A program made the position numbers and the translations under genes. The notes beneath the pieces were generated by a model. That model was not told where the DNA came from and searched no databases. It saw only the letters and a program-made list of their open reading frames with translations. From Alphaproteobacteria bacterium (GTDB lineage Bacteria > Pseudomonadota > Alphaproteobacteria > RF32 > CAG-239), in assembly GCA_045602545.1 (NCBI GenBank), contig JAZSBR010000033.1, forward strand, positions 14,645-78,644: a stretch of DNA of 64,000 nt, given 5' to 3'. Shown one piece after another: positions 45,555-49,346 of this stretch (the first letter of the stretch is position 1; each line of letters begins with the position of its first letter).

Positions 45555-48500
45555 TCAGTTCCTCCGATTCTTTGCTACTTCAGGCAAAACATATCCTGCC
45601 GCTTTTTTGTCGCCGTCTATAAATGAGCCGTTACTCTTCAAATAGCCGATTTCATTATTTTCAATATCAATAACTTTTCCCGATGTGGCCAAGCGTCCCA
45701 AATAATCACCCTGATTGGAAAGTACTGTCTTTCCGATTTCAAAAGTGTGGCCGAGAACATTATTGTTATTATCAACAGCTAATCCGTCAGTCAAAACTTT
45801 ACCGATTTGTACTCCGTGATTCATAATGCGCCCGTCAATATTAACATGCCCCTTAAACTTGTCATCATTACCGATAACAATGTCCGAGCTGACAACTTCG
45901 CCTATAATACGGCTATCATTATTGATAACTTTTCCGTCAGGCAACACAAAACCGTTTATATTGCGCTTTAAGTCCATAAATTTCCCGTCAGGAAGAATGC
46001 TTCCTATCCATTCACCTTTAAAGTTAATCACAATTCCGAGCGGGATCGGCGCATAATTTTCCGAATTAACTTCGCCGGGTAAAAACTCGGATATAAGTGA
46101 ATTATCACGACTGTAAATATTACCTATACCATCAGAAAAACCGATATATTTTCCGAACATATCAATAACCGGCGTCTTAGGCAACAATTCTCCGATGATT
46201 GTGCCGTCTTTAACAATGTGGCCGTCCGGAACAAAAAATCCCGTAACATCACCCGGCTTATATGTTCTTCCGTCAGCCGTTTCACTTTCTTCCGTTTCTA
46301 TAACCAAACCGTCAGCAGAAACATAGCCCAAAAATGCACCGTCATACCCGCGCACTCCGCCTTGTTTAACAATTCCTCCGATTTGCTGATTACGTTCATC
46401 AATCATTCTGCCTTTAACATCAATTCGCCCGAGCTTTGCACCGGTGTTGTTCAAAACATTCATATCATAATTAACAAAACCGATGTTTTTACCGTTCATA
46501 TCAACAACTTGTTTCAGCGGAACAATTGCACCGACTTCACCGTTATAAAATCCGGTACCGTCACCGCGGATTTTATCAATCATCACACCGTCATTATCAT
46601 AAATATTTCCGTCAGGAAACAGATGACCTATAACTCTTGATTCGGCATTTGCTACCACTGTTACTTCAGGTACAACATAACCTATAATCTCATTGTTTGC
46701 CGTAGCAAGCAAATTGCCGTTCATTATGTGAGTTCCCGAAAATCCGGCAATTTTTGCCTTGCCGTTGTCATCATAAACTCCAAGCAGATTACCCTTAAAA
46801 TCAAAGGCATATTTTGCATCTTGCACCGAACCGATGTAAGACATATTAGCATCAAAAACTTCGCCATTGCTATTGGCACAACCGATGATTTTGTTTTTGG
46901 AATCACGTAATGTACCGTTCTTCTCCAGAATTCCGATAATTTCATTTTTTTCCGAATATACCGGTCTGCGCTCCACAACATGTCCGATCACGCGCGGTTC
47001 ATCCAATGCCAGAATTTTACCGTCAGGATTAACACAACCTACTTCTCTTCTGTCGGCATTTCTAACATAGCCGTCAGCCTGTAATTCGCCTAAATAATTG
47101 CATTCATTATCAAAAACACTACCGGTTTTGATCAACTTTCCGGCAAACTCACCTTCCGGTGTCCACAAAGTTCCGTCGCCGTAAATTCTGTAATTAACTT
47201 CATTTCCGTCATGCAAGATTATTCCGTCTTTTGTGATGCGACTGTCATATTGGCAACCCCAATCGGCAACAAAGCCTGCTTTAATTCCGACGGCAATAAC
47301 CTTTTGTCCTTTTTTATCCATCACCAAACCGTTAGGCAACATTTTACCGGCAACCTTCTGATCTTTAACAATTTCACCGCGATTGTTAACCGTTCCCAAA
47401 ACGCGTCCTTCCGGAGTTATCGGTATCAAATTTGTATCAAGAAGCGAGCCTATTTTATTAATTCCGAACGGGATAATTTTCCCGTCTGCTCCCATTATTC
47501 CGATGATATTACCGTTTTTATCGCGCACAATTCCGTCTGCGTCAACATAACCGATTAACTCGCCTTTTTCATTATAGGCCAGCTTTCGCATATCGCCGGC
47601 ATAACCGATGATATTGCCGTTTTCATCAATAATATTGCCGTTTTCATCAACTCTTCCGATTATATTGCCGTTAAAATCGCGCACAATTCCGTCAGCATCA
47701 ATATAGCCTATAACATTTCCGTTTTTATCATATGCCAAACGAACATTTTCGCCGGCATAGCCCAAAATGTCGGCATCATCAAGAAAACCTTCTTTATTGC
47801 CGATTATATTGCCGTTTTCATCAACATAACCGATAACCTTGCCATCCTTATCGCGCACCATACCGTTTGCGTCAATATAGCCGATAACCTTGCCGTTTTC
47901 ATCTAAGGCTAAATCGCGCCATTCATCGCTGGCATGTCCGATAATGTTACCGTTTGCATCAATAATATTGCCGTTTTCATCCACACGCCCGATTATATTA
48001 CCGTTAAAATCGCGAACATTACCGTTTTCATCAATATAACCGATTACATTGCCGTTTTCATCCATGGCTAATCGAACAGAGGCTCCGCGCTTTCCGATAA
48101 CGGATTTTTTCACAACATTACCGTTTTCATCAACATAACCCACAACATTACCGTTCTCATCAACAACTTCTCCGTTCGGCATAACAATACCTATAGGATT
48201 ACCGTTTTCATCAAAAGCAACCGCTCCCGATTTTGCCACGCGTCCGATAATATTGCCGTTTGCATCAACAACTTCTCCGTTGGCATTCACTCTGCCGATA
48301 ACATTACCGTCCAAATCAACAACCGTACCATCGCTCAAAACTCGCCCGATAAGGTTACCGTTTTCATCATAAACATAACCGCTTTCAATGGCCTTACCGA
48401 TAATTTTTCCATCTTTGTCAACAACCGTTCCGTCAGCAAGCATAGTACCGATAACATTACCGTCATTATCATAGGCAATACCGTTTTCATCAACATAGCC

Positions 48501-49346
48501 GATAACATTACCGTTTTCATCCAAGATTAAACGACCGTTTGTTGCCACGCCGATAATATTTCCGTCTTTATCAACAATCATTCCGTCAGCATTTACTCTG
48601 CCGATTTCGTTACCATTTTCATCATAAACAATACCATTTTCATCAATATAACCGATAACTTTTCCGTCCGGACCGATTGCAGGGCGCAGATTCTTTTTAT
48701 CACTTAAGTTTTTGCCCGTATTTGATGAAATACCGCTATCGCAGAAATTGCACTCCTCTTTTGTAATGGCGTTTCCGTAAACGGCAACTTCATCATGTTT
48801 TGCATCTTTATCGGCAACATTTGTTTCGCGCCAAACAATTTTAAAATTGTTTTGAAAATTATAAGCCATAGTCGGCAACCAGCGCATTGTAACACTGCAA
48901 GTACCTCGTCCGCGAAGTTCTTTTCCGTTGCATTGATTATCAAACGTAAAGCCCTCAGCCGCCACATCTTCCAGCTCAATAGAAATAATTTTTATTGAGC
49001 TTTTTGAATTTGTGCCGATTGTCAAAACATTAGTTGCTTCTGTTCCGATAACGACCTGCCCCATATTGATCGGATTAGGAGTCAATGTTATCGGGCGCTC
49101 AATTTCTTCGGCATCATCAAATTGTATTTCACTTTCAAGACTTCCTTCATCACCAACCTGCAAATTTGTTTCGGCATCAATGCTGTCATCAATTTCATAG
49201 GTTTGTTGCTGTTCCTGCGGTTCATCCGAAGTCATTAAAGCAAGACCGAACAGAAAAACCAGCATACTGATAATTCCGACAATCAATATTATACGATTAG
49301 TCTTACGAACATACCTGTCTGAATGTGTTAATACTTCTTTGCTCAT
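45555..49346 (-). CDS. membrane-anchored giant repeat protein resembling the N-terminal (cytoplasmic tail + TM) half of VirB10 followed by more than 1000 aa of the same beta-repeats
   Basis: 1263 aa; N-terminal cytoplasmic segment then TM RIILIVGIISMLVFLFGLALM; highly regular repeats DENGNVIGYVDENGIAYDNDGNVIGTMLADGTVVDKDGKIIG...; ends 2 nt before the ATG of the VirB10 ORF (TGA-AG-ATG, with GGAGGA RBS). Confidence 0.5.
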   Translation of the reverse strand: MSKEVLTHSDRYVRKTNRIILIVGIISMLVFLFGLALMTSDEPQEQQQTYEIDDSIDAETNLQVGDEGSLESEIQFDDAEEIERPITLTPNPINMGQVVIGTEATNVLTIGTNSKSSIKIISIELEDVAAEGFTFDNQCNGKELRGRGTCSVTMRWLPTMAYNFQNNFKIVWRETNVADKDAKHDEVAVYGNAITKEECNFCDSGISSNTGKNLSDKKNLRPAIGPDGKVIGYIDENGIVYDENGNEIGRVNADGMIVDKDGNIIGVATNGRLILDENGNVIGYVDENGIAYDNDGNVIGTMLADGTVVDKDGKIIGKAIESGYVYDENGNLIGRVLSDGTVVDLDGNVIGRVNANGEVVDANGNIIGRVAKSGAVAFDENGNPIGIVMPNGEVVDENGNVVGYVDENGNVVKKSVIGKRGASVRLAMDENGNVIGYIDENGNVRDFNGNIIGRVDENGNIIDANGNIIGHASDEWRDLALDENGKVIGYIDANGMVRDKDGKVIGYVDENGNIIGNKEGFLDDADILGYAGENVRLAYDKNGNVIGYIDADGIVRDFNGNIIGRVDENGNIIDENGNIIGYAGDMRKLAYNEKGELIGYVDADGIVRDKNGNIIGIMGADGKIIPFGINKIGSLLDTNLIPITPEGRVLGTVNNRGEIVKDQKVAGKMLPNGLVMDKKGQKVIAVGIKAGFVADWGCQYDSRITKDGIILHDGNEVNYRIYGDGTLWTPEGEFAGKLIKTGSVFDNECNYLGELQADGYVRNADRREVGCVNPDGKILALDEPRVIGHVVERRPVYSEKNEIIGILEKNGTLRDSKNKIIGCANSNGEVFDANMSYIGSVQDAKYAFDFKGNLLGVYDDNGKAKIAGFSGTHIMNGNLLATANNEIIGYVVPEVTVVANAESRVIGHLFPDGNIYDNDGVMIDKIRGDGTGFYNGEVGAIVPLKQVVDMNGKNIGFVNYDMNVLNNTGAKLGRIDVKGRMIDERNQQIGGIVKQGGVRGYDGAFLGYVSADGLVIETEESETADGRTYKPGDVTGFFVPDGHIVKDGTIIGELLPKTPVIDMFGKYIGFSDGIGNIYSRDNSLISEFLPGEVNSENYAPIPLGIVINFKGEWIGSILPDGKFMDLKRNINGFVLPDGKVINNDSRIIGEVVSSDIVIGNDDKFKGHVNIDGRIMNHGVQIGKVLTDGLAVDNNNNVLGHTFEIGKTVLSNQGDYLGRLATSGKVIDIENNEIGYLKSNGSFIDGDKKAAGYVLPEVAKNRRN

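Follow-up and report, generated by a model that had tools for sequence, protein, structure and literature searches.

What two adjacent giant open reading frames (ORFs) built of short Gly/Asp-rich repeats contribute to the cell is the question raised by the 64,000 nucleotides (nt) of contig JAZSBR010000033.1 analysed here, which are referred to as the window. The first-pass annotation of this DNA regarded the two ORFs, here designated gene A and gene B, as arrays of an undescribed beta-repeat and missed their context, namely that both are type IV secretion (VirB10) genes situated between virB9 and virB11. Judging by sequence, the window holds a split giant VirB10 of which A and B constitute the two halves, because relatives encode a single protein of 2200 amino acids (aa) that combines the N-terminus of A with the C-terminus of B. 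The arrays of beta-flower hairpins found in both proteins probably form the periplasmic bodies of this giant VirB10, encoded as two adjacent, translationally coupled genes. This reading draws on domain content, topology signals, gene order, the single-gene form in relatives and a conserved Shine-Dalgarno sequence, all of which were observed directly. The two genes are:

45555..49346, minus strand: gene A, 1263 aa, predicted inner-membrane half of the split giant VirB10 (from the ORF, Pfam, orthologue alignment and gene order).
41362..45552, minus strand: gene B, 1396 aa, predicted outer-membrane half of the split giant VirB10 (from the ORF and Pfam matches to Bflower_2 and TrbI).

The features which place the pair in the VirB10 family are the C-terminal TrbI domain of B and the location between virB9 and virB11. 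The TrbI domain is also matched by the NCBIfam ComB10/VirB10 model and, among sequences in the PDB, by ComB10 (2bhv, 3.5e-20), TrwE (7o3j), VirB10 (6gyb) and CagY. Canonical VirB10 carries an N-terminal cytoplasmic tail and a single inner-membrane helix on one polypeptide together with TrbI. This topology is not displayed by B; it is complete only in the A+B pair taken together, or in the single-gene proteins P0037 and P0038. In B, hydropathy analysis revealed no segment of transmembrane strength; in place of the usual VirB10 membrane anchor stands a 13-residue hydrophobic core, LSVVALAFFTSYV, of a putative signal peptide, which B orthologues keep and which is followed in them by the motif (A/Q)EITxxxFNG.

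41656..42261, minus strand: TrbI/VirB10 C-terminal domain, B aa 1098-1299 (PF03743, 103.9 bits, 1.2e-29, cut-off 35).
45469..45552, minus strand: putative Sec-type signal peptide, B aa 1-28 (core LSVVALAFFTSYV, cleavage site between SALA and EI, assigned by eye).

Gene A is devoid of a TrbI domain and provides the complementary end. Its transmembrane helix reaches 3.03 in a 19-residue Kyte-Doolittle window, the segment of aa 1-38 is invariant in orthologues, and the same N-terminus also heads the single-gene VirB10 proteins P0037 and P0051 of about 2200 aa. Orthologues of A with 54-77% identity align end to end. Behind the helix lies an Ig-type beta-sandwich, modelled by AlphaFold2 (AF2) with a predicted local distance difference test score (pLDDT) of ~80, for which Foldseek against the PDB returned the HYDIN PapD-like domain 2e6j (TMt 0.68), the CEP192 ASH domain 6fvi, PapD and MSP; sequence matches are weak (Pfam ASH, 0.0066; NCBIfam choice-of-anchor D, 9e-5). 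In a search of 1.84 billion representatives, the full module of tail, transmembrane helix and ASH domain occurred only in this clade. By itself, the ASH-like domain recurs often as a repeat in large proteins that are unrelated, and it therefore carries no meaning specific to type IV secretion systems (T4SS).

49233..49346, minus strand: basic cytoplasmic tail (HSDRYVRKTNR) and single transmembrane helix (aa 19-37), A aa 1-38 (Kyte-Doolittle).
48756..49094, minus strand: ASH/PapD-like (MSP-fold) Ig-type beta-sandwich with conserved cysteines, A aa ~85-197 (AF2 and Foldseek).

The relation between the two-gene and the one-gene arrangement emerges from the 1158 homologues of A, among which many proteins of 2015-2210 aa join an A-type N-terminus to a TrbI C-terminus. 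In P0037 (2201 aa) and P0038 (2202 aa), the A-type tail, transmembrane helix and ASH domain are followed by the TrbI C-terminus, and at locus L001 the single 2202-aa gene (P0038) fills the slot between virB9 and virB11, with no A gene present at the locus. On the other hand, the order VirB9 - A - B of the window recurs in L002-L004 and in those related loci that extend far enough to cover the gene downstream. In the best alignments to P0037, A corresponds to residues 1-1243 and B to residues 780-2145. Moreover, in an unrooted neighbour-joining tree of the TrbI domain, calculated with no outgroup, all 29 split-type sequences (29/29) group in a single clade free of other sequences, with the single-gene forms in a clade of their own. 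This clean separation points to one historical event, either a fission or a fusion.

The junction of the two genes is equally conserved. The stop codon of A (45555-45557) lies 2 nt from the ATG of B (45550-45552), the two genes being in different frames, and the last codons of A, AAT CGG AGG AAC, contain the sequence GGAGG 8 nt upstream of this ATG. All 49 motif-identified A orthologues (49/49) end in NRRN, and in nearly all relatives (L002-L084) the last four A codons read AAY CGG AGG AAY, with GGAGG located 5-10 nt before the B start; furthermore, stop and start often overlap in relatives as TAATG or TGATG. The retention of the CGG AGG pair over dozens of species, at protein identities of 38-77%, indicates selection on the nucleotides, and the invariant NRRN protein tail may thus be constrained at the RNA level. 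We read GGAGG as the Shine-Dalgarno sequence from which B would be expressed in translational coupling to A. Such coupling, which is deduced from the sequence conservation, fits two parts of one unit that are made in fixed proportion.

45555..45587, minus strand: C-terminal tail of A, LPEVAKNRRN, and stop codon, invariant in orthologues.

Two genes 2 nt apart in different frames could in principle also arise from a single gene that was frameshifted in two, or from repeats collapsed or expanded by short-read assembly, and the gaps of 100 N in the scaffolds of L085 and L086 (see below) document that the repeats can break assemblies. As an explanation of the split, such an assembly or annotation artefact is already refuted, and its probability for the locus as a whole is negligible: the junction of A stop and B start, the conserved tail, the Shine-Dalgarno sequence and the signal peptide of B recur over related A-B loci from independent assemblies, the closest orthologue shows the same architecture with proteins of 1260 and 1400 aa, and the repeat units are too divergent at the DNA level (62%) to collapse.

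With regard to the repeats, both giant ORFs are real and both consist of a Gly/Asp-rich beta-hairpin unit which fits the consensus initially proposed. A hidden Markov model (HMM) of the unit, seeded with 17 units and yielding ~21 clean copies at A aa 225-625 in the first pass, gives the consensus D-[EK]-[ND]-G-x-[VI]-I-G-x-V-x-x-[ND]-G-x-V-x. The period, previously given as roughly 20 residues, is actually 17 aa (51 nt), since the glycine autocorrelation is maximal at lag 17 for A (0.39) as well as for B (0.37), and the commonest spacing of the G-x-x-h-G motif is also 17. Likewise, the estimate of hundreds of units was too high: the iterated HMM detects 33-42 units for A and 18-28 for B, and the repeat regions of ~1030 aa (A) and ~955 aa (B) divided by 17 leave room for ~60 and 56 units, i.e. 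~50-70 recognisable units or ~115 by region length. In addition, A features 85 and B 55 [DNEQ]xxG sites. The regular block of A is organised into 8 super-repeats of ~51-57 aa with 3 hairpins each, the best pair of which, S5/S7, shares 79% nt identity. In the subsequent degenerate part of A (aa 626-1250), Gly/Asp positions are retained, many G/D columns are invariant over 15 orthologues, and each position is conserved between orthologues.

47472..48674, minus strand: regular block, A aa 225-625, ~21 clean 17-aa hairpin units (unit HMM).
45597..47471, minus strand: degenerate hairpin units, A aa 626-1250, with low HMM scores and the period-17 signal kept.
42598..45465, minus strand: ~56 degenerate beta-flower hairpin units, B aa 30-985, devoid of DNA-level repeats (Pfam; glycine lag-17 autocorrelation 0.37).

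By the very test which the first-pass annotation had proposed, a profile search, its claim of an undescribed family is refuted, since the unit falls firmly into the Pfam beta-flower families. Bflower_2 (PF21785, cut-off 38) matches A with 253.9 bits (1.5e-76) in 9 stretches and B with 183.7 bits (9.1e-55) in 7 stretches, Bflower (PF21784, cut-off 25) matches A with 119.4 and B with 41 bits, and DUF3659 (PF12396) also matches A. Durairaj et al. 2023 gave the beta-flower fold its name; they describe flowers of 4-, 5- or 6-fold symmetry, each a shallow barrel with 8, 10 or 12 short strands, in which every "petal" is a beta-hairpin bearing the semi-conserved motif [DNEQ]xxG at its tip (PMC10584680). 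In accordance with this description, the [DNEQ]xxG hairpin tip is present in both A and B, with Gly/Asp columns invariant in orthologues, and the AF2 model of A aa 405-645 (pLDDT 89.8; predicted template-modelling score, pTM, 0.78) displays short antiparallel hairpin strands, which according to DSSP alternate between 5 and 3 residues.

The initial exclusion of RTX, MORN and pentapeptide repeats holds, as no Pfam or NCBIfam match to them was obtained (E<=0.01), whereas that of YD repeats is only half right: RHS models pass their whole-protein cut-offs, with not a single stretch passing individually. The repeats could accordingly be taken for YD/Rhs-type units that form an Rhs-like shell or toxin-delivery element, since A scores 66.9 bits with RHS_repeat PF05593 (cut-off 22) and 62.1 bits with TIGR01643 (cut-off 15.8), a phmmer search of the PDB matched Rhs 7q97 (E 6e-4), and the Rhs effector Tse15 is the top Foldseek match in the PDB (E 1.4e-8). 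This proposal is highly improbable. No single stretch passes either YD model, Bflower_2 scores about four times higher, and the superposition on Tse15 (8uy4) yields a TM-score of 0.12 at a root-mean-square deviation of 21.8 A; there is neither an Rhs core nor a toxin domain, B lacks any RHS match, and the period is 17 aa as opposed to the ~20-21 aa of the YD unit. Membership in the RHS/YD family would show in matches of single repeats and an Rhs-type shell fold, neither of which was found, and we read the YD/RHS scores as a reflection of hairpin-turn sequence features that are shared without common family membership.

Other structural resemblances of the repeats were rejected as well. Foldseek comparison of the repeat-only model with the PDB returned local resemblances to Rhs, designed propellers and choline-binding repeats, all with TM-scores <=0.18, which were dismissed as fold matches. 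Similarly, B aa 933-971 (42640-42756) matched natural and designed WD40 propellers (2ymu, 1.2e-12) with no stretch passing on its own; these matches probably stem from a local SPDG...D..TV resemblance between hairpin repeats and not from homology. A function of the beta-flower arrays in binding peptidoglycan or membrane lipid, thereby anchoring or spacing the machine in the envelope, appears rather doubtful. Weak local Foldseek matches to the choline-binding repeat proteins CbpF and LytC and a weak SPOR-like (peptidoglycan-binding) tail of the neighbouring VirB9 speak in its favour, but the TM-scores to CbpF and LytC do not exceed 0.15, the SPOR match remains under its cut-off and no ligand-binding residues are identifiable; moreover, such binding would be compatible with a scaffold and does not exclude it.

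The repetition extends to the DNA, though to a lesser degree than was initially assumed. The recurring motif does occur where the first-pass annotation placed it, at 47.5-48.7 kb: CCGTTTTCATCAA, the reverse complement of codons for (V/I)DENG, is found 18 times at <=1 mismatch versus 0.36 expected, a count which 0 of 100 shuffles reached, and 16 of the 18 matches lie within 47617-48646. On the contrary, the units are far from near-identical at the nucleotide level, with the 18 cleanest 51-nt units averaging 62% identity and reaching at most 90%. Exact direct repeats do not exceed 25 nt in A or 13 nt in B, the 35-nt pattern described earlier has 1 exact match, 3 at <=2 mismatches and 8 at <=4, and Tandem Repeats Finder reports arrays of only 1.9-2.5 copies. 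Identical residues use the same codon in 58% of cases versus 44% expected from the codon usage of the gene, which is a modest leftover of DNA-level homology by common descent or conversion. DNA-level repetition is confined to the regular block of A (47472..48674), with essentially none in B, and would represent the remnant of old whole-module duplications.

Whether these repeats alter the length of the proteins was addressed between and within species. Among 80 species representatives, the length of A varies between 1122 and 3151 aa and its clean units number 9-60, while B, whose length in relatives was called from the first possible start codon, comprises 1381-1469 aa, or 1571 aa in one lineage; variation between species is thus restricted to A and its regular block. 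In close A orthologues, insertions and deletions correspond to whole blocks of ~50-60 aa inside the regular block. Fresh tandem duplications are evident in some relatives as exact repeats of 317 nt (L039, spacing 309), 196 nt (L064, spacing 312) and 119 nt (L040 and L066, spacings 615 and 639), which corresponds to modules of about six hairpins. The closest A orthologue (77% identity) has 1260 aa versus 1263 in the window, with a B of 1400 aa and the same architecture, and the A orthologues at 54-77% identity are nearly constant in length (1257-1269 aa).

Within species, length was compared in relatives, given that the exact protein of the window is absent from the sequence collection. Species-level clusters (>=90% identity) from many independent metagenomes, five of them A-type and one single-gene, were used for this purpose. 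The full-length members of four A-type clusters have 1266 aa (13 members), 1370 aa (12), 1581 aa (14) and 1373 aa (10); the fifth covers 1266-1269 aa owing to indels of 1-3 residues outside the repeats, and the single-gene cluster comprises 15 members of 2201/2202 aa. Three shorter cluster members (1232, 1207 and 1243 aa) were considered as candidates for internal unit indels, and all three turned out to be N- or C-terminal truncations when aligned. Two further members of 667 aa aligned as C-terminal fragments, one of which was traced to contigs and lies downstream of a 100-N scaffold gap.

The predicted size variation therefore holds between species and fails within them: with one length per cluster and exact repeats of <=25 nt in the window, phase-variable length is unsupported. 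The alternative of a CagY-like contingency region, in which the repeat block of A recombines in populations and thereby tunes or switches secretion or evades host immunity, is unlikely. It is favoured by the range of 1122-3151 aa between species, by exact repeats of 88-317 nt in relatives and by hosts that are gut and rumen animals, and there are VirB10 homologues with recombining repeats, such as CagY with its middle repeat region, and DotG, whose size is reported to differ between strains (PMC6761968). Against it stand the longest exact repeat of the window (25 nt) and its average unit identity of 62%, the five A-type clusters without internal length variants, whose aligned shorter members are terminal truncations, and the nearly equal lengths of orthologues at 54-77% identity (1257-1269 aa). 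In addition, A is equipped with an N-terminal membrane anchor only and has no evident route to the cell surface. The hallmarks of contingency loci of the CagY type, i.e. long near-identical direct DNA repeats and in-frame length variants within clusters of relatives, are both missing. Consequently, A is an evolutionarily expandable gene which is awkward for assemblers, and no evidence of phase variation was found.

The expectation that the locus is prone to assembly trouble was borne out, as the repeat block can break assemblies and two scaffolds contain 100-N gaps. In L085 and L086, which are independent human-gut scaffolds, the gap lies within the A orthologue (locus ~5820-5925, ~residue 681/1373), about the end of the regular repeat block; as a result, gene calling yields a fragment of 667 aa, and spurious minus-strand ORFs were called over the N-terminal half.

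Returning to the split giant VirB10, a mechanism can be outlined from these features. A would supply the cytoplasmic tail and inner-membrane helix, which is the usual role of the VirB10 N-terminus, together with the ASH/PapD-like domain and ~60 hairpins. B would be exported via its signal peptide and contribute ~56 degenerate hairpins as well as the TrbI barrel, which is expected to join VirB9 and VirB7 in the outer-membrane core complex. The repeats would act as beta-hairpin petals of 17 aa each with D/N-x-x-G turns, and ~2000 residues of beta-flower per A+B pair (~16 Pfam-detected domains) would replace the short proline-rich periplasmic linker of an ordinary VirB10. Presumably, A and B associate in the periplasm and thus restore the bridge from inner to outer membrane. 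In as many copies as the oligomeric core complex holds, the pair might build an enlarged periplasmic cylinder or cage, by analogy with DotG (with DotF) and CagY. Between species, the copy number in A would change by gain or loss of modules of ~50-110 aa, remaining stable within species.

Several points weigh against this reading. The summed length of A and B exceeds that of the single-gene form by ~460 aa, and residues 780-1243 of the latter are covered by the best alignments of both proteins, which merely dividing a single gene would not explain; the event may have been a fission or a fusion. The signal peptide of B was assigned by eye, and the binding of A to B as well as the location of the repeat arrays are predictions from sequence. 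Furthermore, neither a VirB6-like polytopic protein nor VirD4 was found among the window ORFs scanned, and the machine may thus be incomplete or not functional.

Both genes are embedded in an operon on the minus strand with the order VirB4, five signal-peptide ORFs, VirB8, VirB7-like, VirB8, VirB9, A, B, VirB11, which is flanked by chromosomal housekeeping genes including FtsH, QueA, RuvX, PBP1, RNase E, RF2 and LpxB. It is an rvh-like type IV secretion operon on the chromosome of an uncultured alphaproteobacterium from the gut.

60980..63409, minus strand: VirB4 ATPase, head of the gene cluster (PF03135, 2.8e-17).
52841..60909, minus strand: five consecutive ORFs (1380, 410, 359, 292 and 222 aa) between VirB4 and VirB8, with signal-peptide-like N-termini.
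50974..52825, minus strand: VirB8 paralogue pair with a VirB7-like lipoprotein in between (PF04335, 3.4e-21 and 5.4e-10).
52076..52825, minus strand: VirB8.
51734..51922, minus strand: VirB7-like lipoprotein, 62 aa (small ORF with the lipobox LSAC, between both VirB8 paralogues).
50974..51717, minus strand: VirB8 paralogue.
49352..50962, minus strand: VirB9/CagX homologue, 536 aa, with signal peptide (PF03524, 3.8e-12).
40377..41351, minus strand: VirB11 ATPase, directly downstream of B (PF00437 T2SSE, 5.3e-23).

The 62-aa ORF is likely a VirB7-like lipoprotein; ORFs of 51-65 aa were called at this position in L001-L004, and the VirB8/VirB7-like/VirB8 trio is also present in relatives. The VirB9/CagX homologue is long (536 aa), and its C-terminal SPOR-like match is weak (E 0.0015; 19.2 bits, under the 21-bit cut-off). 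VirB4 (809 aa) features one or two hydrophobic segments at aa 9-39 of its N-terminus and may be a VirB3-VirB4 fusion. The five signal-peptide ORFs occupy the slot of the VirB6 paralogues in rvh systems; they match no Pfam or NCBIfam family, and no polytopic membrane segments were detected in them. Homologues of the 1380-aa ORF (1135-1506 aa) sit at the equivalent position in relatives, where the orthologue in L033 (55-4482) contains a 172-nt exact tandem duplication at a spacing of 168 and that in L024 (11-4531) a 57-nt exact repeat, rendering a second operon gene repeat-prone in some species.

Pfam scans, which covered 27 of the window ORFs, revealed no relaxase or VirD4. Unlike in the rvh islet, VirD4 does not follow VirB11; instead, RuvX, a leucine-rich-repeat protein and QueA come next on the opposite strand. 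The window encodes two BspA-type leucine-rich-repeat proteins (PF13306, 6e-33 and 2.6e-10), at 38967-39863 on the plus strand and at 6159-7427 on the minus strand, one of which lies just beyond the VirB11 end of the operon. Both could be surface or secreted proteins.

The organisms concerned are Alphaproteobacteria of the gut and rumen that have not been cultured, their hosts being humans (Hadza, Nepal, Brazil), deer, sheep, yak and horse. In automated annotation, the proteins already go by "DUF3659 domain-containing" or "TrbI/VirB10 family". In the literature, no paper was found on VirB10 together with DUF3659, nor on RF32 in connection with Alphaproteobacteria and type IV secretion, and none of the 8 listed beta-flower papers, out of 10, deals with type IV secretion; the only DUF3659 paper found deals with fungal lipid droplets. 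The locus represents neither a new repeat family nor a phase-variable locus. The repeat family is already known, and what is new relative to the literature found is the chain of ~16 beta-flower domains inside VirB10, the two-gene form of VirB10 coupled via a Shine-Dalgarno sequence, and the asymmetric variability, with A being variable and B fixed.

Of all T4SS subunits, only VirB10 spans both membranes, and it relays energy to the gate in the outer membrane. Two machines with an expanded VirB10 are known, Cag and Dot/Icm, and they constitute much larger and functionally distinct architectures. It is conceivable, if tentative, that after CagY and DotG a third kind of expanded VirB10 arose independently in gut and rumen alphaproteobacteria, in which ~100-240 beta-flower hairpins per protomer, on one or two coupled chains, would build an unseen megadalton periplasmic T4SS superstructure, with the copy number in A setting a physical dimension of the machine, such as its envelope span or reach. 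If true, this superstructure would be the first functional context of the beta-flower fold, which is known only from predicted models. The clade is widespread (80 species representatives), and its VirB10s, either single proteins of 2200 aa or split pairs with 2500-4600 aa in total, possess a fold that lacks an experimental structure. The split pairs offer a natural test of whether VirB10 works as two polypeptides, in a system where the repeat number of one half varies between species and the other half is fixed, and they provide a concrete cellular role for studying beta-flower domains.

In comparison with known systems, the beta-flower proteins (PF21784/PF21785/PF21786, clan CL0395) share with A and B the profile matches, the [DN]xxG tips, the short antiparallel hairpins and the lack of a solved-structure counterpart. 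Those described so far are small, with ~100 residues in a single domain, and include some lipoproteins, whereas here ~9 and 7 Pfam-detected domains (~115 hairpins) are chained in two secretion-machine proteins, one of which is fused to TrbI.

As to the operon, the RvhB10 protein of Rickettsia is of ordinary size (~480 aa). In the rvh islet of Rickettsia typhi, rvhB8-II / rvhB7 / rvhB8-I are followed by VirB9, VirB10 and VirB11 (PMC4676284), and this order of VirB8 - VirB7 - VirB8 - VirB9 - VirB10 - VirB11 matches the window. By contrast, VirB10 is giant and split here, the slot of the RvhB6 paralogues is taken by signal-peptide proteins without polytopic segments, and VirB11 is not followed by VirD4.

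CagY of Helicobacter pylori is likewise a VirB10 of unusual size, in which extensive internal repeats precede a conserved TrbI C-terminus. The CagY repeat region is reported to recombine; here, the repeats have diverged at the DNA level (25 nt maximum), the length holds constant within species, the repeat is an unrelated beta-hairpin and two genes are involved. Legionella DotG has a variable middle region of pentapeptide repeats, works with DotF and is reported to form a periplasmic cylinder from the outer-membrane core to the inner-membrane complex (PMC6761968). DotG keeps its own membrane anchor and its pentapeptide repeats contrast with the beta-flower hairpins found here, for which Pfam returned no pentapeptide match. 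Nevertheless, DotG/IcmE and DotF/IcmG share with the locus a VirB10-family C-terminus after a variable repeat region, and the A/B pair resembles their two-protein arrangement, A being homologous not to DotF but to the N-terminal part of the single-gene giant VirB10.

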